Assembly (NCBI GenBank): GCA_964530955.1
Contig: CAZHCL010000005.1
Span: forward strand, 1 to 46,683
Source of the DNA: Candidatus Woesearchaeota archaeon
GTDB taxonomy: Archaea; Nanobdellota; Nanobdellia; Pacearchaeales; GW2011-AR1
Reading direction: 5' to 3'
Length of the DNA stretch: 46,683 nucleotides
The notes under the pieces were generated by a model. That model did not search any database. It was given only the letters and a program-made list of their open reading frames with translations, and had not been told where the DNA came from. Positions 25,573 through 46,651 of this stretch are shown in pieces; the stretch's first letter is position 1, and each line of letters begins with the position of its first letter. Position numbers and translations under genes: made by a program.

Positions 25573-26451
25573 ATGAACAATTACCTCTCAAATCACTTTG
25601 AAAAGAGTTCAAGAGATTTTAAAGAATGGTTTTTGGAAAAACGTCATCCGCATAGCACTCTTAATAAAACAGAATTCATTCATGATTTACTTAAATTTAC
25701 TGGATTTTTATTAGTTTTCTTAATTATCTATAATAATGTTGATAAGTTAAACGATATCAGTCTCTGGATTATTCAATTAGGGTCTATTGCCCTGTTGGTT
25801 CTTTTGTTCTTTGTTATAAGAAAAGGTTGGCATTTATCTTTAAATCTTAAATATTGGTTTAGAGGGTTCAACAATGGGACAAAAGTAATAATAGGAATAA
25901 TACTTGTGTTGGTCCTATTACTTGCATTCTTCAATCAGGATAATGTAATTAGCAATATAACTACAACATATGATAAAATAAAATTCTCTAGTTTCTTACC
26001 AGTCAACTTAGAATCTTTAAATTTATCTTTATTTAACCTTACTGTCTTATCAAAAAGTTTTAACACTTGCCCCCAGATTAATGTTTCTATGGATATTTAC
26101 TCTTTTCAAAGTTTCACTGGAGACGTTGGAAGCATTAGTGGAAAAAGCTATGATGGATGGACAATAAATGGTTTAGCAACCTGTAGAAAAGGAACTAAAG
26201 AAGGGGAGAACCTAAATAAATATTACTGCGGAGGGTATTCTTATATGTTGGGTATTGGAAGTGTCAATGCTTATATAGAAAAGACGATTATTTCTAGTGA
26301 AGGAAATATTGGTAAAACTTACAAATATGTAATTTGGAACACTTATGATGAAAATAGGAATTTTGTTGAGACAAGATGCCTAGGAGACCCTGATGAATTT
26401 GATAAAAGACAGGCAGAGGCATTCATGAACGAATTGAAAAGTTGGAATTAA
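25573..26451 (+). CDS. Membrane protein (3 TM) with a Cys-containing, probably extracellular domain
   Basis: Starts 1 nt after the AN1 gene; three hydrophobic helices, then a soluble domain with four Cys. Confidence 0.7.
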   Translation: MNNYLSNHFEKSSRDFKEWFLEKRHPHSTLNKTEFIHDLLKFTGFLLVFLIIYNNVDKLNDISLWIIQLGSIALLVLLFFVIRKGWHLSLNLKYWFRGFNNGTKVIIGIILVLVLLLAFFNQDNVISNITTTYDKIKFSSFLPVNLESLNLSLFNLTVLSKSFNTCPQINVSMDIYSFQSFTGDVGSISGKSYDGWTINGLATCRKGTKEGENLNKYYCGGYSYMLGIGSVNAYIEKTIISSEGNIGKTYKYVIWNTYDENRNFVETRCLGDPDEFDKRQAEAFMNELKSWN

Positions 26452-30147: not shown

Positions 30148-32073
30148 ATGAAAAGGAGAGGACTTTTGAGCAGCTTTCTTATATTTATTACTATAGGAAT
30201 ATTTCTCACATTTGCCTTTGCTTCTGCGGATAATTCAACCAATACAACTTCTGCTTCTCTGACTGCTTCGAATAATTATACATTAACAACAGGTTCTGGC
30301 ACAAGTTTTGTAAATGTGCCAAGCGACCAACAGGGAGCAATAAATAATGCTTATCAATGTTTGAATAATCAGATAGCGAATAAGAGTTCTTCTGACCTTT
30401 CGCTTCAGGAAGCTGTTTTTGGAATGATGGCTGTTGGAAGCAAAGATAATCTTCAGCAGGAAATCGATAATGATGAAAGCACATCATCAAGTTGCTGGCC
30501 TAAGCAAGGATGCACTGTAAAAGATACTGCACAAGTTCTTCTTGCCTATGAAAGGTCAGGACAGAGCAGAAGCGATATAGAAAACTGGCTTACTTCAAGA
30601 AATTCAACTTCAACTGATCTTAACTGGTTCCTTGAGATGGACATATCGAATAACAATGCGTCTCAATGCACTTTAACATATGATGGTTCGCAAAAGACTG
30701 TAAATATTGGAAATGATATGAAACTTTCTGGAAATCCTGGAAGCTGTTTCACATTCTCTTCAAGTGGTTACTGGCTTCTTTTCAGAAATAACTGTTACAA
30801 TAAGGATATAAAAATATCATGTGATAAGGATTTCATAACTACTCTTCTTTATCAAAAGGTAGCTGGGACAACAACCTATGTACTTCCTACTACTCATTCT
30901 GCTGCTTCTCTCGGCTCGACAGATGAAACAGTAAATACTCAATGCTTCAAAACTGGAAACACCTGCGATTATGAAGGAAGTCTTTGGGCTGCTTTTGCCT
31001 TGCAGAAAGATGGAATAAATGTAGATCCTTTGATTCCATACTTAATTGCAATGTCAGATAATAATGCTCAGTATTTCCCCGGTGCTTTCTTGTATTCTTT
31101 CACTGGTGCAGATGATCAGTATTCTAATATTGTTCAGAGCCAACAGCAGGGAAGATTCTGGAAAATGATAAACACTCCTTACAATCAGTTTTATGACAGT
31201 GCTCTGGCAATGCTTGCATTATCTCAGAGTTCTGCAACTGAGCTTGATAATTCTAAAAATTATTTCTTAAGTATACAGGGAAGTGATGGATGCTGGAACA
31301 ATGGTAACATAAGAGATACTGCATTTCTTCTTTATGCTGGATGGCCAAGAGCAGTTGCTGGCGCTGGAGGAGGAAGTGGAACAGGTGGAAGTCTTTGTCA
31401 GGCAGTTTCAGGACAGTCATGTCAGAATACAGTTTCATGCATCAATGCTGGAGGACGAGTGCTTTCTAATTTCCAGTGCCCTGGATTTAGTGTTTGCTGT
31501 TCTGTCAATGTGCAGCAACAAAGTTGCGCTGCCCAAAATGGAGCAATATGCGGTTCAAATCAGCAATGCAGTGGAAATTCATTGCCTTCATCTGATTCGG
31601 GAACATGCTGTTTGGGAACATGTGTTAACCAGCAGTTGACTGATACTTGCTCGCCTGCTGGAGGAGTTTGCAAAAATATATGCTCTGGCACCGATGACAC
31701 TGACTCTACAAAAACATGCACAAATACTGGAAATGTTTGTTGCATTGCTCAAGCAACGCCAAGTGGAGGCTCAAGCTGGTGGATAATATTACTTACCATA
31801 TTAATAATAATTTTAGTAGCTCTCATTTTGTTGAGAAATAAAATTAAAGTCTGGTGGTTCAAGTACAAGGGCAAGGCTAAAGTCTCACCAATTGTAAGGC
31901 CCGGAGTTCCTCCCGTAGGTCAAGGATATAGACCACAACCAGGATTCAGACCTCAGCCATCATTCAATAGACCTTCTGCTCCTCAGAGAATGCCTGCAAG
32001 AAAACAGCCTCTTTCAGAGAAAGACAGAGAGATGGAAGAGACTTTAAAAAAGCTTAGAGAAATGAGTAAGTAA
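30148..32073 (+). CDS. Membrane-anchored surface protein: prenyltransferase/squalene-cyclase-like alpha-alpha toroid repeats, three 6-Cys modules, TM, Pro-rich cytoplasmic tail
   Basis: Signal peptide ending AFASA; repeats SSCWP...VKDTAQVLLAY, QQQGRFW...YDSALAMLAL, QGSDGCW...IRDTAFLLYA; TM WWIILLTILIIILVALILL. Confidence 0.8.
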   Translation: MKRRGLLSSFLIFITIGIFLTFAFASADNSTNTTSASLTASNNYTLTTGSGTSFVNVPSDQQGAINNAYQCLNNQIANKSSSDLSLQEAVFGMMAVGSKDNLQQEIDNDESTSSSCWPKQGCTVKDTAQVLLAYERSGQSRSDIENWLTSRNSTSTDLNWFLEMDISNNNASQCTLTYDGSQKTVNIGNDMKLSGNPGSCFTFSSSGYWLLFRNNCYNKDIKISCDKDFITTLLYQKVAGTTTYVLPTTHSAASLGSTDETVNTQCFKTGNTCDYEGSLWAAFALQKDGINVDPLIPYLIAMSDNNAQYFPGAFLYSFTGADDQYSNIVQSQQQGRFWKMINTPYNQFYDSALAMLALSQSSATELDNSKNYFLSIQGSDGCWNNGNIRDTAFLLYAGWPRAVAGAGGGSGTGGSLCQAVSGQSCQNTVSCINAGGRVLSNFQCPGFSVCCSVNVQQQSCAAQNGAICGSNQQCSGNSLPSSDSGTCCLGTCVNQQLTDTCSPAGGVCKNICSGTDDTDSTKTCTNTGNVCCIAQATPSGGSSWWIILLTILIIILVALILLRNKIKVWWFKYKGKAKVSPIVRPGVPPVGQGYRPQPGFRPQPSFNRPSAPQRMPARKQPLSEKDREMEETLKKLREMSK

Positions 32074-34680: not shown

Positions 34681-35421
34681 TTAAAGATTAGTATTATGAA
34701 GCCTACGAAGAAGAAATATTAATCCTGCTAGAAGAATGAAAGTTATAAATCCGTAAAATAGACCATTTCTTAGAGAATTATCTTTTGTTGAATAATTGTA
34801 GCTATTGTTGACAGCATCAGTTGTCTTATTATTGAGAATTATCTTTTCGCTTTGATGTGGCTGTGAAGATAAATTGGAATGAATTTGCGAATTAATAATG
34901 TTAATTGAATGATTATTAGAGATTATATTTTGAGATTCGGATTGATTAGTTGACGAATCTAAGGAGATTGACGAGTTAACTCTATCATCTAATTGCTCTT
35001 CGGTATTAGGTTCTGCTTCTTGCCTTTCATTGACTGTTATCTCAATTTCCTTGCAGAGTTCTGAAAAGGAAGATGCGCCTGATTTTCTGAGTCTTACACA
35101 TATTTGCTCTGTTTTTTGTTCAGATAAATTCTTAACAACTTTAATAGGGTAAGTTGTTTGAGAGGGAAAAGCTCCAACAAGGTAATTCCAAGGATTTTTC
35201 CAGGAATCTTCAAATTTTATCTGAGAAACTATATCGGACTGAGTTATTTTACTATCTGAAGAGTTATGAATAAATACTTTTACATCGTAGGTATCGGGTG
35301 TATCTGCTGAAATAGAAACATCAAACTCATCATTTACTGTTACAGAATCTGGAGAAGTAAAATTAAACTGCAGAGCACTTGTAAGTGAAGATAATATAAT
35401 AATTAAAGAGCTAATAGCCAT
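34681..35421 (-). CDS. Secreted, C-terminally anchored protein with a Ser/Asn-rich stalk
   Basis: Start set at ATG 35421 (signal peptide MAISSLIIILSSLTSA, overlapping the nuclease stop); C-terminal TM LFYGFITFILLAGLIFLL. Confidence 0.72.
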   Translation of the reverse strand: MAISSLIIILSSLTSALQFNFTSPDSVTVNDEFDVSISADTPDTYDVKVFIHNSSDSKITQSDIVSQIKFEDSWKNPWNYLVGAFPSQTTYPIKVVKNLSEQKTEQICVRLRKSGASSFSELCKEIEITVNERQEAEPNTEEQLDDRVNSSISLDSSTNQSESQNIISNNHSINIINSQIHSNLSSQPHQSEKIILNNKTTDAVNNSYNYSTKDNSLRNGLFYGFITFILLAGLIFLLRRLHNTNL

Positions 35422-36154
35422 AATCGTGAGAATGAACGATTTTTCCTTCTGAATCAAAGAGGTATAATGTGTCTCGGTCATCGTTCCATATGTTCTGGTT
35501 TGAATTCCAGAAATAATCTGTTTCATTATCTTTGCCCACTCCGGTATGGATAATCAGCTTATCTTTAATAGAACTTTTGAAGACATAAATCTTTCTACTC
35601 TCATCTTTTAGCATCCATCCCGATAAATTTATTTCATTACATGTATTTGAGATGGTTACAATCTCTTTTTTGCTGTCAATTTTAGAATTAAAACATCCAA
35701 AATAATCTGATTTCTTCCAGATTCCATAGGAGTTGTTTATTGCTTTTGCTTCCGCATTTGAAAATAATTTAAGCTCTGAACTATCTACTAAGAACTTTGA
35801 AGCAAATCCATCTTGAACAATCAATAAATTAAGATAATCGGGAGAATAGAGTCTGGCAAGATTTCTGAAATACTTGTCGGTTCCTGTTATTTCTATCTGT
35901 ATGCTTGAGTTTTCATATTGTTTCAAAAAAGAGGTTGACTCTGCTGAACCTGGCTTGCCTTTTTCAGGAGAGTTAATATTTAGCAGTCGGACTATTCTTC
36001 CGTCTTCAAGTTGGATAGTATCTCCGTCTATGACTCTTATCACTACTACTGTCTCTTTGTCTGAATCTTTATTAATTAAACTGAAAAGAAATGTATCTGA
36101 TGCTATAATTATTGTCAAAATTACGGATATTAGCAAAGCATATTTCTTATCCAT
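35411..36154 (-). CDS. Membrane-anchored thermonuclease (SNase) with lamin-tail domain
   Basis: N-terminal TM; RVIDGDT, VRLLNINSPE, DKYFR.LA; LTD INLSGWMLKD, HTG.G, IWNDDRDTLYLFD..G. Confidence 0.88.
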   Translation of the reverse strand: MDKKYALLISVILTIIIASDTFLFSLINKDSDKETVVVIRVIDGDTIQLEDGRIVRLLNINSPEKGKPGSAESTSFLKQYENSSIQIEITGTDKYFRNLARLYSPDYLNLLIVQDGFASKFLVDSSELKLFSNAEAKAINNSYGIWKKSDYFGCFNSKIDSKKEIVTISNTCNEINLSGWMLKDESRKIYVFKSSIKDKLIIHTGVGKDNETDYFWNSNQNIWNDDRDTLYLFDSEGKIVHSHDYGY

Positions 36155-37736: not shown

Positions 37737-39509
37737 ATGAAAAACAATAAAGTTCTGATTTATGTTTCGGTTATCTCAGTATTATTTTTGGTTTTTTCCC
37801 TGACTGCTGCATCTGCTTTTAGTCTGCCAGGTTTTATAAAAAATATGTTTAGTAGTCAAAGGGTGACTGGAAATTCGGTATCTGACCCCGTAGTTATATT
37901 TCAGGATATGTTTTTAGGCAACACAATATCAAGTGACTGGAACCTTTGGAGAATGCAGTTTGGTCAGGACAATAATGATCTAGTTACACTTCCGGCCTAT
38001 AAAGTTGGATTTTATTATATGCTAAGCGGAAGATCAGCCATAGCTCTCACGCACATTGGAGATACGACCTGGAATAATTATACTGTTGAAGCTGCAATTG
38101 AAAATCTTCCTGCTGGTGGATATAATCCAGGGGCTACATCTCCCTGCTACCGAGGCTCAGGTATAATGTTCAGGGTAGTTAATGCTTCTGAAAATTGGAA
38201 TTATCCAGAGAATGATTTTTACACTTTCTTCCTTGAAACTAGAGACTGTAGCGGGTGGTCTACAAAAGGAAATTGGGTAATTCAGAAGGATAGAGGTTAT
38301 TGGATTCCTGGACATGGATGGAGCGATAACAATAGTGGGAGCAGCGAAACACTTTCATCGGGAAATATAGCTAGTTTTACAAACGACGGAATTAATGATA
38401 TTAAAATAACTGCTGTGGGAAATAACTTTGCTGTATGGGTAAATGGCAATTTGGTCAAATCATTTACAGATAATCAAAATGCTTTAAACTACGGCGGTGT
38501 TGGAGCCACCTGGGGTTGGGATTCAATGGGAAAACTCCATAATATAACTGTAACCAGTGCATCCTCGGATGATTTACCTCCATCTCCACCTCTTTCCCTT
38601 TCTCTTTGTAAGGATAGTGATGGAATTAATTATTACAATCAGGGTAATGTTTCATCAAATAATGCAATTTATTATGATACTTGCACAAATGCCAGTACAT
38701 TACAAGAGTTTTATTGTGTTGGAAATAATTACAGGTCTGTAAATTATCAATGCCAGTATGGTTGCGTAAGCGGAGCATGTTTGAATTCTTCTTCTAGTAA
38801 TTCAAGTGTTCTGACTTGCAACGATACTGATGGAGGATTAAATTATTATGTTCCTGGAAGTGCTAAAGGTATTCCTTCTCTTGTAATTAAACTGAATGTT
38901 ACAATCACGTTGCCTGATACTTGCGTAAACTCTACTTTATTGTCTGAAGCGGAATGCTACAATGGTTATGTATTGCCTTACAAATATAGTTGCCCATACG
39001 GGTGTATAAATAACAGCAATGGGCTTGGAAGTTGCGCCTATGGAAATCCTGCTTCTAGTAATTCGACAGTTAATGTCTCATCTCTAAACAATACAAATGT
39101 AGGAAATTCAACGTTGGTAACTGAAAATGTCAGTTTGAACTCTTCTTCTAACAATGCAACCATTCCCGCAAACCAAACAACAAGTGCAAACAATACTAAC
39201 TCGAGTTCTCAATCCCCATCGCAATCAATAAATCAATGCACGATTGGAAACAGAACCAATGCGCAGTACTGTGATATCAATGGTACATTTGAGAAGCAAA
39301 AGAATGATAGCTCCAGCTGCCAGAAGAACTATGAGTGCTTGAGCAACTTCTGCATATCTGGAAAATGCACTACCGTGACTTCTTCTTCGGGAGGACAGGC
39401 AGGTGTGGTGAGAAGTATTGTAATCAATGTATTATGCAGGTTTGCAAATATTATAAGAAAAGAGAACTATAATTCTTGCATTGTCAGATACCTTGGGAGC
39501 AAGAATTAA
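37737..39509 (+). CDS. Secreted Cys-rich surface protein with a concanavalin/DUF1080-like beta-sandwich and two C.D(S/T)DG repeats
   Basis: Signal peptide; WNNYTVEA, GIMFRV, DIKITAVGNNFAVWVNG.LV.SFTD...YGGVG; repeats at 38607-38780 and 38817-39035; C-terminal QK....C..NYECLSNFC..GKC; SD GAGGT. Confidence 0.75.
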   Translation: MKNNKVLIYVSVISVLFLVFSLTAASAFSLPGFIKNMFSSQRVTGNSVSDPVVIFQDMFLGNTISSDWNLWRMQFGQDNNDLVTLPAYKVGFYYMLSGRSAIALTHIGDTTWNNYTVEAAIENLPAGGYNPGATSPCYRGSGIMFRVVNASENWNYPENDFYTFFLETRDCSGWSTKGNWVIQKDRGYWIPGHGWSDNNSGSSETLSSGNIASFTNDGINDIKITAVGNNFAVWVNGNLVKSFTDNQNALNYGGVGATWGWDSMGKLHNITVTSASSDDLPPSPPLSLSLCKDSDGINYYNQGNVSSNNAIYYDTCTNASTLQEFYCVGNNYRSVNYQCQYGCVSGACLNSSSSNSSVLTCNDTDGGLNYYVPGSAKGIPSLVIKLNVTITLPDTCVNSTLLSEAECYNGYVLPYKYSCPYGCINNSNGLGSCAYGNPASSNSTVNVSSLNNTNVGNSTLVTENVSLNSSSNNATIPANQTTSANNTNSSSQSPSQSINQCTIGNRTNAQYCDINGTFEKQKNDSSSCQKNYECLSNFCISGKCTTVTSSSGGQAGVVRSIVINVLCRFANIIRKENYNSCIVRYLGSKN

Positions 39510-41188: not shown

Positions 41189-42718
41189 ATGGCAATAGTA
41201 ATAAATACTAACCCTGCCATCCCTGCGCTGCCGAGAGTAGATGATAAAAAAAAGATAAATGTGAGGTATATGCTTATTCCTCCCTATGCGTCTGCGCATA
41301 TATACTGGGATGAAAATATAAATGAGTTGGTCTATGATATAGAAGAGCCTTTATTGCAGGACTATGAAAAAGAGGCTCTCGAAAAACTTGAAGATGCTAT
41401 GCTTGAACTTATAAATATTAATGTGGCTGTTGAAAATACTTTAGAGGCGACAACAGAATATATAGACAAGACAGCAAGACTTCTAATTTCTGAATTGAAT
41501 CTGAAAATAGGAAAGGACACTTATACCAGAATATTTTATTATTTATTCAGAGACTTTATAGGGTTAAACGAGGTTGATCCCTTGCTTAGAGATTATTTTA
41601 TAGAAGATATTGAATGCAATGGAGTCAATACTCCAGTTTATGTTGTTCATAGAGTTTATAGAAACTTAAGAACTAACTTGAATTACAGAGATATTGAGAA
41701 GCTTGCCAGTTTCATTGAGAAGCTTGCCCAAAGAACTGGAAGATATGTTTCTTACGCTCAGCCTTTACTTGATGGAACTCTCCCTGATGGCTCAAGAGTT
41801 AATGCCACCTATACAAAAGATGTTACTTCAAGAGGTCCGACATTTACAATCCGTAAATTTACAAAAATACCTTGGACTCCAACGCAGCTTATAGGTCTTA
41901 ATACCGTAAGTCCTGAAATGCTTGCTTATTTTTGGATACTTATACAATATAAATCAAGCATATTGATATCTGGAGGAACTGCTTCGGGAAAGACAACTTT
42001 GCTAAATGCGCTTGCTTTTTTCATACCTCCTGAAGCGAGAGTTGTTTCAATTGAAGATACAAGAGAAATAAATCTTCCAAGAGAAAATTGGCTTCCTGCT
42101 GTTGCCAGAACTTCAATAGGAGTTGGAAAAGTAGGAGAAGTAGACTTATTTGACATACTTAAAAATTCTTTTAGACAGAATCCTGATTATTTAATTGTCG
42201 GAGAAGTAAGAGGAAAAGAAGCTTCTGTGCTTTTCCAGGGAATGGCATCTGGTCACGCATCCATAAGCACAATGCACGCTGATTCTATAGACACTTTAAT
42301 AAGAAGACTGCAAACACCTCCTATAGATTTGTCCCCTACTCTTGTAAATTCTCTTGACTGCGTTGCTATTGCAACACATGCTCTTGTTAATAAACGAGAA
42401 ACAAGAAAATTGAAAGAGGTTGTAGAAGTGGTTAATGTCAATAGAGATGGAACTGCTTTAATCAATACGCCTCTTCTTTGGGACCCTTCAAAAGATGTTT
42501 TCTATTACAAAAAACAGAGCAAAGTCTTTGAGAGGATTTCTGCAAAACAAGGAGTTCCACTTGAAAAACTACAGAGAGAGTTTGTAACGCGAGCAAAGCT
42601 TCTTTATGAAATGTATAAGCAAAAAGTTTTCGGATTTGAAGATGTTCAGAAAATAATAAATGACTATTACAAAAATCCGGTGGAAGTACTTCAAAAATAT
42701 AATATAATAGAGGGATGA
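41189..42718 (+). CDS. Type IV pilus assembly ATPase (FlaI/TadA/VirB11 family)
   Basis: IEDIECNG, DGTLPDGSRV, TIRKF, Walker A GGTASGKTT, SIEDTRE, Walker B LIVGEVRG, His box GHASISTMHA; TTTATAAG box at 41160. Confidence 0.95.
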   Translation: MAIVINTNPAIPALPRVDDKKKINVRYMLIPPYASAHIYWDENINELVYDIEEPLLQDYEKEALEKLEDAMLELININVAVENTLEATTEYIDKTARLLISELNLKIGKDTYTRIFYYLFRDFIGLNEVDPLLRDYFIEDIECNGVNTPVYVVHRVYRNLRTNLNYRDIEKLASFIEKLAQRTGRYVSYAQPLLDGTLPDGSRVNATYTKDVTSRGPTFTIRKFTKIPWTPTQLIGLNTVSPEMLAYFWILIQYKSSILISGGTASGKTTLLNALAFFIPPEARVVSIEDTREINLPRENWLPAVARTSIGVGKVGEVDLFDILKNSFRQNPDYLIVGEVRGKEASVLFQGMASGHASISTMHADSIDTLIRRLQTPPIDLSPTLVNSLDCVAIATHALVNKRETRKLKEVVEVVNVNRDGTALINTPLLWDPSKDVFYYKKQSKVFERISAKQGVPLEKLQREFVTRAKLLYEMYKQKVFGFEDVQKIINDYYKNPVEVLQKYNIIEG

Positions 42719-42719
42719 A

Positions 42720-42881
42720 ATGGAAAAAGAGGATATAACTCTCATGGCCCAGCTTCTTACTGGAATAAAAGATGCCATATCGAAGCTTCAGGATGCGGAG
42801 AAAAAGAAAGATATTGAGAAGCTTAATGCTGCTAAAAAAGAAATTCTTAGTTTTCAGGGGCAGATAGAGAAGTTACTATGA
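42720..42881 (+). CDS. 53-aa helical microprotein between the ATPase and platform genes (not in the ORF track)
   Basis: Read by hand: MEKEDITLMAQLLTGIKDAISKLQDAEKKKDIEKLNAAKKEILSFQGQIEKLL*; starts 1 nt after the ATPase stop, ATGA overlap with the next gene. Confidence 0.8.
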   Translation: MEKEDITLMAQLLTGIKDAISKLQDAEKKKDIEKLNAAKKEILSFQGQIEKLL

Positions 42882-44176
42882 TAGATGAGTTAAAACAAAA
42901 TATTGAAACTGAAATAGAGATACTCAGAGAGATATCAAATAATATGAGGAGACTGGATTATGCAAACTCTTCTGAAAGAAAACTTTTGATTGCCTCGATT
43001 GAGTCTTTGAAAAACAGCATGATGCTCATCAACTCATCAACTCCTAAACTTCTTAATGATATAGGAATTGTACAAAAACTTCCCAGAAAAGAACAGAATA
43101 CTTCTCTTGAAAAAATAGAGTTCAGGAGTGCAGATACATTATTTCAGGCGACTGTCCTTGCCAAGGATAGAGAAAGATTGCTTAAAGAATTGAGTATAAG
43201 CGATAGTCTTGTGAAAAAAATAAGAAAGAGGACATTGATTCCAGAAGAAAAATATGGTGAATTAAAATCTGCAAGAGGATATCTAAAATTTTCAAATATG
43301 TTATTCCTTGATTATGCACAGACACTTATACGCAAGGGAAGCTTCAAACCTCTGGCATTACAGATTAAAAAAGCAAACCTAGACTTATTGCTTGCTACCT
43401 ATATTGCAATGATTCTCTTGACAACTATAATATCATTTATCATTTCTCTTTTTGTCCTTGTATTTTTTGTGTTCTTCAGTTTACAGCTTACTCCCTGGTT
43501 TATAACTTTCTACACAGGAGATTTTCTTACTAGACTATTGGAAGTTATATGGATACCACTAGTAGTTCCAGTAATTACTTTCTTTGTTCTTTATTACTAT
43601 CCTTATACTGAGAAAAATTCCCTTTCGAATAAAATAAATAATGAACTTCCTTTTGCAGTTATACAAATGAGTGCAATATCTGGCTCGGGTATAGAACCTA
43701 GCGAGATATTCAAAATAATTGCAGTCACGAAGGAATATCCTTACTTGAGAAAAGAAGTAAGAAAAGTTCTGAATCAGATTAATATTTATGGATATGACTT
43801 AATTACTGCCCTAAGCAATGTATCAAAAAGCACATCAAGCACTAAACTGGCTGAGCTTTTTTCTGGACTTGCGACTACTATAACTTCGGGCAGTGACTTA
43901 CAAACTTTTTTTGAAAAAAGAGCTGAAGGACTCTTGACCACTTATCGACTTGAGAGAGAGAAATACACTACTCTTGCAGAAACATTTATGGATATTTACA
44001 TAAGCGTAGTTATAGCTGCTCCGATGATATTAATGATTTTATTGGTGATGATTGCAGTACTTAAAATAGATACGGGGTTCAGCATAGGGGGATTGACTGC
44101 AATTATGCTTAGCGCTATTGCTTTCGTTAATATAATATTCATTGGGATAATCCATATGAAACAACCTAAATATTAA
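42878..44176 (+). CDS. Type II secretion F / TadC-FlaJ-like platform protein with helical N-terminal extension
   Basis: I.NELPFAVIQMSAISGSG, GYDLITAL, SSTKLAELF.GL...I.SG, IYISVVIAAP; several TMs. Confidence 0.9.
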   Translation: MIDELKQNIETEIEILREISNNMRRLDYANSSERKLLIASIESLKNSMMLINSSTPKLLNDIGIVQKLPRKEQNTSLEKIEFRSADTLFQATVLAKDRERLLKELSISDSLVKKIRKRTLIPEEKYGELKSARGYLKFSNMLFLDYAQTLIRKGSFKPLALQIKKANLDLLLATYIAMILLTTIISFIISLFVLVFFVFFSLQLTPWFITFYTGDFLTRLLEVIWIPLVVPVITFFVLYYYPYTEKNSLSNKINNELPFAVIQMSAISGSGIEPSEIFKIIAVTKEYPYLRKEVRKVLNQINIYGYDLITALSNVSKSTSSTKLAELFSGLATTITSGSDLQTFFEKRAEGLLTTYRLEREKYTTLAETFMDIYISVVIAAPMILMILLVMIAVLKIDTGFSIGGLTAIMLSAIAFVNIIFIGIIHMKQPKY

Positions 44177-44177
44177 A

Positions 44178-45068
44178 ATGAAAATGAGAAAAATGCACTG
44201 GGTAGGAATTATTTTTGCTGCAATTGTAATTCTATTAGATATTCTATTCTTTTCAGGTAGTGATAACAGCAGCTTTTTCATGTTCCTTATTGGAATTGCT
44301 CTTGCGTGTGTAATACTTCCATTCATAATAGGACTCGTAATTGATAATAAAAGAGATCAGGAAATTGCAGAGATGTTTCTTGAATTTTCAAGAAATCTGG
44401 CTGAAAGCGTTTCGACAGGAACTCCCATAAGTAAGAGTATAGTTAATATGAAAGAGAAAAACTACGGTCCTTTGAGTCCTTACATTCAAAAGCTGGCAAA
44501 TCAAATATCCATAGGTATTCCATTGAACCAGGCATTGCAAAACTTTGCCTATGATGTTGACAATCAGGTTATAACTAGAGCGATAACTCTTATAGCTGAG
44601 GCTGAAAAAGCGGGTGGAGAAATAGATTACATACTTGAATCTTCTGCCAAGTCAATCGCCGAAATTGAAAAACTAAAGAAAGAAAGAAAAGCAGCAGTAT
44701 ATAATATAACCGTTCAGGGATATATCATATTCTTTATATTTATAGGGATAATGCTTGTCATGGAATTCAAAATATTGCCTTTAGCTGCTGGAATAAATTC
44801 TTTCGGAGGATTAAATGCTAATTTTGGGAATATTGTGGGTGGAAATGTAAACAGTATTGCCACGAGTGCTTCAACCGCTTCAAGTTCAAATCCTGCAACT
44901 GACTTATCAAGTCCTTTGTTTTTCCTTCTTATAACTCAGGGATTGTTTGCAGGTCTTGTAATAGGTAAAGTGACTGAAGGTAGCCTCAAAGCAGGAATAA
45001 AACATTCGTTTATACTTGCAATAGCTGCTTTCCTTATATCTACTGGAGCAAAAGCATTGTTTGGCTAA
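44178..45068 (+). CDS. Second TadB/TadC-like platform protein
   Basis: MFLEFSRNLAESV.TG, YGPLS..I.KL.NQ...GIP, AEKAGG, QGLFAGL.IGK..EG.L.AGIKH. Confidence 0.9.
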   Translation: MKMRKMHWVGIIFAAIVILLDILFFSGSDNSSFFMFLIGIALACVILPFIIGLVIDNKRDQEIAEMFLEFSRNLAESVSTGTPISKSIVNMKEKNYGPLSPYIQKLANQISIGIPLNQALQNFAYDVDNQVITRAITLIAEAEKAGGEIDYILESSAKSIAEIEKLKKERKAAVYNITVQGYIIFFIFIGIMLVMEFKILPLAAGINSFGGLNANFGNIVGGNVNSIATSASTASSSNPATDLSSPLFFLLITQGLFAGLVIGKVTEGSLKAGIKHSFILAIAAFLISTGAKALFG

Positions 45069-45862
45069 ATTTCAGCAGAGGGGTTTTTTATTAGGTAAAA
45101 AATTTCATTGCTCGTATTTATTATTTCAAAAGAGTAGTTGTTTCTTTCAAGAATTGACTCGAACCATTTTCTTATGGGATTATTCATTGATTTTCCTGAA
45201 AGCTTTGCTGTTGAAAAGCTGATTAGAAAATACTTACATTTTATTTTTTTAAGTATTGCTTCGGTTACTTCATACTTCCTCTTACCAAATAAGTCGAGTA
45301 CTTTAAGAACAAGGCAGATATCTGCTTCTGGAAATGAATATTCTTCTGTCTTGCTTAGATCAAAAGAGGAAACTTTTCCAGTTATATTTTTTTCTGCAAA
45401 ATATTTTTTTATTAATGAAAGTTCATTCTCATTTATATCGTAAGCATAATATTTTATTTTTGAAGAGCCAAGTGCTATCGGATTTAGCCCGCATCCTAAA
45501 TCCAAAATAGAGGATACTTTTAGTCCATCAATGAGCGACTTCAGTTGATCATATGAAGAAAGCCTTTCTTTCGTTGAAGAATGTGATTTGAGAAGCTGTT
45601 CAAAATTTCCTTCATCTATCATTTTATCTCTATTTTTTGAGCTTGACTGAAATCTTGCATGCATTAGACGTAGAATAGACCTTACTTCTTTTACTATTAG
45701 CTTTCGGTCAAAACTCTTGACTTTTTCCAAATCATTTTCAGAAAGATTTTGCCTTTTAAGTACAAGGGAGAGGGTTTCAACTACCAAAGAATCTTTTATT
45801 CCGCTAATTTCTTTTTTCTTTTTGATTTCTTTGACTATTGAACTTAGGGCCGCGTTTTCCAT
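45065..45862 (-). CDS. ArmA/RmtB/Sgm (FmrO family)-like 16S rRNA m7G1405 methyltransferase
   Basis: LLKSHSSTKERL, VSSILDLGCGLNPIAL, YYAYDI, DICLVLKVL, FLISF....LSGK, WFES, NEIFY in the same order as in ArmA. Start moved to ATG 45862 because the longer call overlaps the divergent gene. Confidence 0.85.
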   Translation of the reverse strand: MENAALSSIVKEIKKKKEISGIKDSLVVETLSLVLKRQNLSENDLEKVKSFDRKLIVKEVRSILRLMHARFQSSSKNRDKMIDEGNFEQLLKSHSSTKERLSSYDQLKSLIDGLKVSSILDLGCGLNPIALGSSKIKYYAYDINENELSLIKKYFAEKNITGKVSSFDLSKTEEYSFPEADICLVLKVLDLFGKRKYEVTEAILKKIKCKYFLISFSTAKLSGKSMNNPIRKWFESILERNNYSFEIINTSNEIFYLIKNPSAEI

Positions 45863-45910
45863 GCCAATTAAAAGAAAAATGTATATAAAGAGCTTATTAT
45901 TTTCATAAAT

Positions 45911-46651
45911 ATGAATAAGAAGGGTGTAAGCCATGTTGAAGTAATTCTCGCATTTCTGCTTTTCATATTTGCAGTTTTCTTTATACTTACTTTATTTCCT
46001 CCCTGGCAGGCCGCTGTTCCCCAAGATAATTCTAAGATTAATCAGCTTTTGCTAAAATTTCAGCAAAATGCTAGCACTGAACTTAGTGAGATGGGAATAC
46101 AAATGAATAATGCTGGAAACCAGCTAAATAATGTGAATAATCTTGCTTTTTTTATACCTCTTAGTCAGGAAAATTTAAACTCTCGAATTGCTGACATTGA
46201 TGGAAGCATTTTTGATAGTTACCCTCAGCAGAATGGTAGTGGGTATGAAATATGTGCTCAAGCCCAGAATGGTAACTGGCCCTATTTCTTTTATATTAGA
46301 ACAAGTCAGCGGATAGCTCAGAGTAGCCTAGATAGCTCTGCCTGCCCTCCCAGCGTGAATGAAGCATATTACACAATTACATCTACTGAACAGAGAAAAG
46401 TATTATCTGAAAAAGGTATTCTTGATCTTAATGATTCTTACTACGGCAATTATAGTGCGTTAAAATCATATCTTGGGGTTTCAGGGCAGGATAATTTTGA
46501 TTTTATGATTAATTTTTCTGATGGGAAAATAATAGAGGGAAAAACTGAAATACCTCAGAATCTTAATGTAAATTCAATAAACAAAAGAATGGAAGTTCTG
46601 CGACTTGATGGAGAAACAGGATTTGCAGATGTCAACATAAGAATATGGTAA
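45911..46651 (+). CDS. Pilin-like protein (E+5 type)
   Basis: MNKKG/VSHVEVILAFLLFIFAVFFIL; TATATAAG box at 45882, 29 nt from the ATG. Confidence 0.8.
   Translation: MNKKGVSHVEVILAFLLFIFAVFFILTLFPPWQAAVPQDNSKINQLLLKFQQNASTELSEMGIQMNNAGNQLNNVNNLAFFIPLSQENLNSRIADIDGSIFDSYPQQNGSGYEICAQAQNGNWPYFFYIRTSQRIAQSSLDSSACPPSVNEAYYTITSTEQRKVLSEKGILDLNDSYYGNYSALKSYLGVSGQDNFDFMINFSDGKIIEGKTEIPQNLNVNSINKRMEVLRLDGETGFADVNIRIW

Follow-up and report, generated by a model that had tools for sequence, protein, structure and literature searches.

An open reading frame for an ArmA-like 16S rRNA methyltransferase lies antisense inside a pilus locus of an archaeon. The question raised by this locus is whether the gene is a borrowed aminoglycoside resistance determinant, a working part of the pilus system, a native defence enzyme or an ordinary modifier of the archaeal ribosome. 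We analysed the locus within a 46,683-nt stretch of DNA (the window, meaning this whole stretch), together with its relatives. We show that the encoded protein (P0001) is a real, intact and native archaeal methyltransferase of the FmrO/Arm family.

The window encodes an archaeal ribosomal protein cluster (S4e, L5e/L18, SecY), as well as a proteasome alpha subunit, an enolase and a primase-like gene, and the closest homologues of P0001 are named Nanoarchaeota or Pacearchaeota archaeon. A DPANN archaeon is a fair description of the host, for which 26 contigs were assembled, 761 kb in total, with a completeness of 83%. Neither the Rfam scan nor the tRNA scan of the window found anything, and a sigma-70 and terminator scan was uninformative because the host is an archaeon. 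Elsewhere in the window, an ORF at 35411-36154 (minus strand) joins a staphylococcal-nuclease domain to a lamin-tail domain, and possibly encodes a nuclease that is secreted or displayed at the surface and helps to scavenge nucleotides. For the large ORFs at 30148-32073, 25573-26451 and 37737-39509 (plus strand; 641, 292 and 590 aa, respectively) a Pfam family was absent or weak.

The methyltransferase ORF occupies window positions 45065-45862 on the minus strand and encodes 265 aa plus the stop codon. An alternative start at 45934, within the same minus-strand ORF ending at 45065, would give a 289-aa frame; the ATG at 45862 was chosen because the homologues align from this position and because the 289-aa version would extend into the pilin-like gene, which starts at 45911. 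The features of the locus are as follows:

41189-42718, plus strand: T2SSE-type secretion/pilus assembly ATPase (PF00437, E = 2e-30)
42878-44176, plus strand: first T2SSF-type pilus platform gene (PF00482, E = 3.5e-15)
44178-45068, plus strand: second T2SSF-type pilus platform gene (PF00482, E = 1.7e-16)
45065-45862, minus strand: methyltransferase gene, with a helical N-terminal domain (residues ∼1-92) and a Rossmann-fold catalytic domain (∼93-265), from PF07091, PDB sequence matches, the AlphaFold2 model and Foldseek
45863-45910, no strand: 48-bp divergent spacer between the methyltransferase and pilin-like genes, holding TATATAAA (sequence reading)
45911-46651, plus strand: pilin-like gene, whose product starts with a short basic segment that precedes a long hydrophobic stretch (translation; same-genus homologues similarly placed in 6 of 7 loci)

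The first-pass annotation of the window had placed the gene antisense between the platform genes and a pilin-like gene, with no transposase or integrase in its flanks and a composition like that of its neighbours, and each of these points held. The methyltransferase gene is antisense and lies between the two T2SSF genes and the pilin-like gene, for which a Pfam search found no family. It is convergent with the second T2SSF gene, and the two stop codons overlap at 45065-45068. No transposase or integrase is visible near the gene on a contig that stops 821 bp beyond it, and its GC3 (0.253) is within the range of the neighbours (0.249-0.318). The platform itself (42878-45068) is divided between two neighbouring T2SSF genes, of 432 and 296 aa, with one T2SSF domain each, and this split, instead of one two-domain gene, is kept throughout the genus.

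Within the divergent spacer, a near-palindromic TATA-like box (TATATAAA) is located at 45882-45889, ∼20 nt from each start codon. The box, as (T)TATATAAA, was found in all six equivalent same-genus spacers examined (L002, L003, L005-L008). This suggests a shared bidirectional archaeal promoter, from which leaderless transcripts would be made.

When the profile search proposed with the first-pass annotation was carried out, P0001 matched the Pfam FmrO family (PF07091) with 62.2 bits (cut-off 27, E = 6.9e-17, profile positions 77-253 of 255), and its scores against generic methyltransferase families of Pfam were far under their cut-offs. P0001 fell below the cut-off of the NCBIfam Rmt equivalog NF000466 (117 vs. 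250 bits). A phmmer search against the PDB returned ArmA (3fzg, 1.2e-16), RmtB (1.4e-12), RmtF (5e-12), Sgm (1e-6) and RmtC (4e-6), and no other matches; by BLASTP, P0001 and ArmA are 32% identical over 219 columns (E = 4e-24). The ArmA/RmtB signature blocks that had been read from the window are all present in the P0001 translation and in order: HSSTKER, SILDLGCGLNPIAL, AYDI, LKVL, ISF..LSGK, WFES and NEIFY. The residues of the SAM-binding motifs, namely HxSTxER, the D-x-G-C-G of motif I and the Asp of motifs II and III, are present and conserved (H94, S96, E99, R100, D121, G125, D142 and D168).

The AlphaFold2 model of P0001, built from 61 aligned sequences, had a mean pLDDT of 94.9 and a pTM of 0.90, with helices up to residue 113 followed by a β/α fold. 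When this model was compared with the PDB by Foldseek, the top 12 matches were all m7G1405 methyltransferases, aligned over both domains, with TM scores of 0.73-0.79 in full-length alignments for Sgm, RmtF and RmtB. The E-value stepped from 1e-12 for the m7G1405 enzymes to 3.5e-8 for generic methyltransferases.

The first-pass annotation had suggested a native archaeal branch of the family. A protein search of relatives detected the methyltransferase gene in 15 of 16 same-genus genomes, and the order first T2SSF, second T2SSF, methyltransferase (antisense) and pilin-like gene was found in 6 of 7 same-genus loci. The same-genus protein identities were 65-77% and 56-68% for the first and second T2SSF proteins, 46-54% for the methyltransferase and 22-40% for the pilin-like protein. 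In 401 genomes drawn evenly from the phylum (including four flagged as unpublished, G283, G361, G398 and G434), PF07091 was above the cut-off in 226 (∼57%), representing 150 of 281 genera; it was detected in 0 of 14 control genomes. By family within the phylum, the gene was present in 41/42, 13/13, 11/11 and 10/10 genomes, and in 0/10 or 0/8 genomes of other families. Among 1.84 billion representatives of 50%-identity clusters, 1061 were matched at E ≤ 1e-3 and 95 at E ≤ 1e-30.

In a maximum-likelihood tree of 68 proteins (unrooted, with midpoint only, made by a quick method and leaving out NEQ545 and the producer enzymes Sgm, KgmB and GrmA), the 31 archaeal proteins formed one clade (SH-aLRT 100). 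This clade is separated by ∼1.9 changes per column from the bacterial group (support 100), which holds ArmA, RmtB, RmtC, RmtE and RmtF and their environmental relatives. In this tree, the archaeal clade stands apart from all bacterial members and is not nested among them. Genus-wide synteny, the 226 positive genomes among the 401 sampled from the phylum and the support of the archaeal clade all speak for the native branch. By these sequence comparisons, the FmrO gene is vertically inherited in these archaea, and is native, not borrowed.

The functional residues of RmtC, taken from its complex with the 30S subunit (PMC10288597), were traced in P0001 and in the 120 archaeal homologues closest to it (RmtC numbering is used unless P0001 is indicated). 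Arg50 corresponds to R61 in P0001 and is Arg in 120/120 homologues, and residue 60 (F71 in P0001) is aromatic in 120/120. Ser107, Glu110 and Arg111 (S96, E99 and R100 in P0001) are kept in 120/120, Asp160 (D142) in 119/120, and Asp188 (D168) is also kept. Lys204, which contacts N7 of G1405 in RmtC and together with the aromatic residue 60 positions G1405 (PMC10288597), corresponds to K187 in P0001 and is Lys in 120/120 homologues. At position 241, P0001 has K224, a Lys as in ArmA, and the residue is basic in 115/120; Met245 (M226 in P0001) is Met in 119/120.

Other positions have changed across the archaeal branch. His54 and Tyr21 are near-universal residues of the N1 subdomain that are required on the E. 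coli 30S subunit, and His54 is essential in RmtC (PMC10288597). His54 is replaced by Arg in 120/120 archaeal homologues and Lys20 by Glu in 119/120. Tyr21 is replaced by Leu, Phe or Ile, and is never Tyr, with Leu also found in RmtF. At position 248, Asn has mostly given way to Pro, the h44-distorting loop (237-246) is shorter by two residues, and an insert of 10-13 residues is present in the N-terminal domain. The position of Lys236 is Ala in P0001 alone among the 120 nearest archaeal homologues. By these comparisons, the cofactor site and the chemistry are intact, and the 30S-docking surface is partly remodelled. Such remodelling would be expected of an enzyme adapted to the archaeal subunit, and would leave room for a shifted target.

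The 16S gene was not found in the 83%-complete assembly of the window's organism with an archaeal or a bacterial model, so that its base at 1405 is taken from congeners. Two same-genus genomes that carry the methyltransferase gene have A1408 and a G1405:C1496 pair in their 16S rRNA. For the 401 sampled genomes, a pattern covering positions 1401-1407 and 1493-1505 was used, which misses unassembled or diverged 16S genes and left 239 genomes with neither form; it detected G1405 in 158 genomes and A1405 in four (G026, G096, G107 and G385). Some DPANN 16S rRNAs have A1405 at a position that is otherwise near-universally G. The partner of A1405 is U1496 in G026, the only A-form match of the sample printed to position 1496, and in the relatives G030 and G031, in which the search gave no match to P0001.

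All four A1405 genomes of the sample carry a PF07091 gene above the cut-off, and the ORFs of G026, G107 and G385, which were read, are unbroken and keep the catalytic Lys, the Asp of motif II and the equivalent of Met245. A frequency of 4 in 401 is too low for statistics, and a 16S gene may have been binned into the wrong genome. The A1405 genomes with an FmrO gene are nevertheless the one observation that argues against reading function from the family name.

In eight other lineages of the phylum, no neighbour of the methyltransferase gene resembles the pilus genes of the window. In one lineage (L026:3298-4314), the FmrO gene overlaps the end of an upstream Pelota/eRF1-like gene, and in another (L029:3401-3919), the end of an upstream Pno1/Dim2-like double-KH gene. 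Pno1/Dim2 is a small-subunit maturation factor. In a third lineage, the FmrO gene adjoins genes for a TP_methylase and an aminoacyl-tRNA synthetase, and elsewhere it adjoins unrelated genes (e.g., serpin, Fic). The overlaps with Pelota/eRF1-like and Pno1/Dim2-like genes suggest operons with ribosome biogenesis or rescue genes, and the context in other lineages leans towards a role in ribosome biogenesis. Since pilus-type neighbours are missing from the eight other lineages, the pilus adjacency is, as far as gene neighbourhoods tell, a peculiarity of this genus, with the ribosome as the recurrent theme elsewhere.

Of the functions considered, modification of the top of helix 44 of the organism's own 16S rRNA, at G1405 in this genus, is the most likely, and we hold it to be somewhat probable. 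The mechanism is modelled on RmtC and Sgm; what P0001 modifies, at which nucleotide and for what physiological purpose is inferred. The helical N-terminal domain would dock on the h24/h27/h44/h45 surface of a 30S subunit of the same organism that is close to maturity. Distortion of the top of helix 44 and flipping out of nucleotide 1405 (E. coli numbering) would fall to the C-terminal domain, and the methyl group would then be transferred to N7 of G1405, while Lys187 (invariant) and Phe71 (aromatic) of P0001 would hold the guanine in position. The product would be an intrinsic modification of the decoding centre, vertically inherited in these archaea; protection from 4,6-disubstituted deoxystreptamine aminoglycosides, if any, would come as a by-product or as a secondary gain.

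This assignment draws on (i) the family match, the fold and the RmtC functional residues that are kept; (ii) the vertical inheritance seen within the genus (15 of 16 genomes, 6 of 7 loci), in more than half of the phylum sample and in the fully supported clade; (iii) the two same-genus carriers of the gene that read G1405:C1496; and (iv) the overlap with genes of the ribosome rescue and small-subunit maturation type in other lineages. Against it stand the score of P0001, which is less than half of the Rmt equivalog cut-off, and the changes on the docking side (H54R, K20E, the loss of Tyr21, N248P, the shorter loop, the N-terminal insert and, in P0001, the Ala at Lys236). The FmrO gene is still carried by the four A1405 genomes, with the three genes read intact, and a homologue of the G1405 type from CPR bacteria conferred no resistance when expressed in E. 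coli (2026 preprint, 10.64898/2026.07.13.738296).

The same fold and chemistry might serve another target. The archaeal branch would then not be an m7G1405 enzyme, or N7 of G1405 would not be its sole substrate: the protein might modify another nucleotide of the small-subunit rRNA or another RNA, or A1405, or act chiefly as a late small-subunit maturation or assembly factor. We regard this alternative as rather unlikely, although it would explain both the intact copies in A1405:U1496 lineages and the clade-wide replacement of His54 by Arg. The PF07091 genes kept in all four A1405 genomes, the catalytic Lys in the three ORFs read (G026, G107 and G385) and the clade-wide H54R, K20E and N248P changes, shorter loop and N-terminal insert are consistent with it. 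However, the residues that hold G1405 in place in RmtC (Lys204 and the aromatic residue 60) do not vary; the replaced residues may just suit the surface of the archaeal 30S subunit; and A1405 is rare (four genomes vs. 158 with the G pattern) and could reflect recent changes or mis-binned 16S genes. The window's own genus, judged from the two congeners, has G1405.

A dedicated, intrinsic aminoglycoside resistance enzyme, kept for self-defence due to aminoglycoside producers in sediment or soil, is unlikely in our judgement, though possible. The sole proven function of the Arm family is resistance through m7G1405 (PMC2896518; PMC10288597), the bacterial-type A1408 in the 16S rRNA of relatives means that the drug site may exist, and a patchy distribution, with entire families having or lacking the gene, fits an accessory trait. 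The stable position and the vertical inheritance across the phylum, with no mobile elements seen, argue against such a role, and so do the operon partners elsewhere, which are ribosome rescue and assembly genes and not resistance or biosynthetic genes. Moreover, aminoglycoside uptake requires a respiration-driven membrane potential, which has been argued to be weak in comparable fermentative ultra-small cells (10.64898/2026.07.13.738296).

The methyltransferase could also be a functional part of the pilus system, methylating, for example, a pilus component. The slot between the second T2SSF gene and the pilin-like gene, kept in 6 of 7 same-genus loci, and the conserved palindromic TATA-like box in the 48-bp divergent spacer would fit such a role. 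We consider it very improbable, because the eight other lineages lack pilus neighbours, the match to 16S methyltransferases extends over the entire protein and takes in the rRNA-docking N-terminal domain, and tight packing in a 0.76-Mb genome explains the adjacency. A pilus-related function was rejected as the main reading on the ground that the adjacency is limited to this genus.

That the gene is a recently acquired bacterial resistance gene, for which the family name is the one point in favour, is next to impossible: recent horizontal transfer was ruled out by synteny conserved across the genus at 46-54% methyltransferase identity, the phylum-wide distribution, the single archaeal clade on a long branch, and a GC3 in the range of the neighbours with no mobile element genes visible.

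ArmA is carried by transposons and plasmids. The first-pass annotation had further supposed that the archaeal gene could bear on where ArmA came from, and the data gave this idea no support. When ArmA was used as a query against 5.8 billion proteins, the best non-ArmA matches were 41% identical and came from uncultured bacteria, one of them named Moranbacteria. When species-representative genomes were searched for LHQIWGAYY, a motif of the ArmA type, 29 loci (L034-L062) with 31-40% identity were found, almost all in CPR MAGs (Daviesbacteria, Dojkabacteria/WS6, Saccharibacteria, Staskawiczbacteria, Moraniibacteriota, Paceibacteria), with a few MAGs labelled Gammaproteobacteria. An archaeal source of ArmA is not supported by these comparisons, since its nearest relatives are bacterial or CPR proteins (31-41%) and the archaeal protein is only 32% identical. 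As far as identities indicate, the CPR proteins are nearer to ArmA than any archaeal protein, yet too distant (∼40% identity) to name a donor.

Archaeal orthologues of the Arm family are not new, having been described in 2010 and 2013, and P0001 is an ordinary member of a known branch. NEQ545 of Nanoarchaeum equitans was the first archaeal orthologue reported; it has perfect catalytic motifs and a diverged N-terminal domain, and its function was left open (Husain et al., 2010, PMC2896518). Its gene is among the 15 signature genes of Nanoarchaeota (Podar et al., 2013, PMC3655853), and no further paper mentioning NEQ545 was found in the literature searched.

The present data add that an enzyme family known for pan-aminoglycoside resistance has a large, old and vertically inherited branch in DPANN archaea, where FmrO is probably an ordinary ribosome modification. 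In resistome surveys, an FmrO match in a DPANN genome is no ground for recording an acquired resistance gene. The branch is relevant to the biology of archaeal rRNA modification; it is of no help towards the ArmA donor, for which, if anything, the CPR proteins are the nearer lead.

The known systems close to P0001 include NEQ545 and its Nst1 orthologue, compared here by description only: all are archaeal (Nanoarchaeota/DPANN) Arm/FmrO members with conserved catalytic motifs and a diverged helical N-terminal domain, but P0001 comes from a mesophilic Pacearchaeota-like genus and lies in a pilus locus. ArmA (PDB 3FZG) is the best sequence match of solved structure and shares with P0001 the Lys at the position of RmtC Arg241 and a low G+C content. 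In contrast to P0001, ArmA groups with CPR-like proteins on the bacterial side of the tree, and has His54, Lys20, Tyr21 and the longer GKEKGM loop. RmtC (6PQB; 30S complex 8GHU) and RmtB, RmtF and Sgm (3FRH, 6PI9 and 3LCU) share with P0001 the two-domain fold, the SAM-binding Ser, Glu, Arg and Asp, Lys204, the aromatic residue 60 and Met245. P0001 differs from them in the replacement of His54 by Arg, Lys20 by Glu and Asn248 by Pro, in the loop shorter by two residues and in the N-terminal insert of 10-13 residues, with 19-22% identity in structural alignments.
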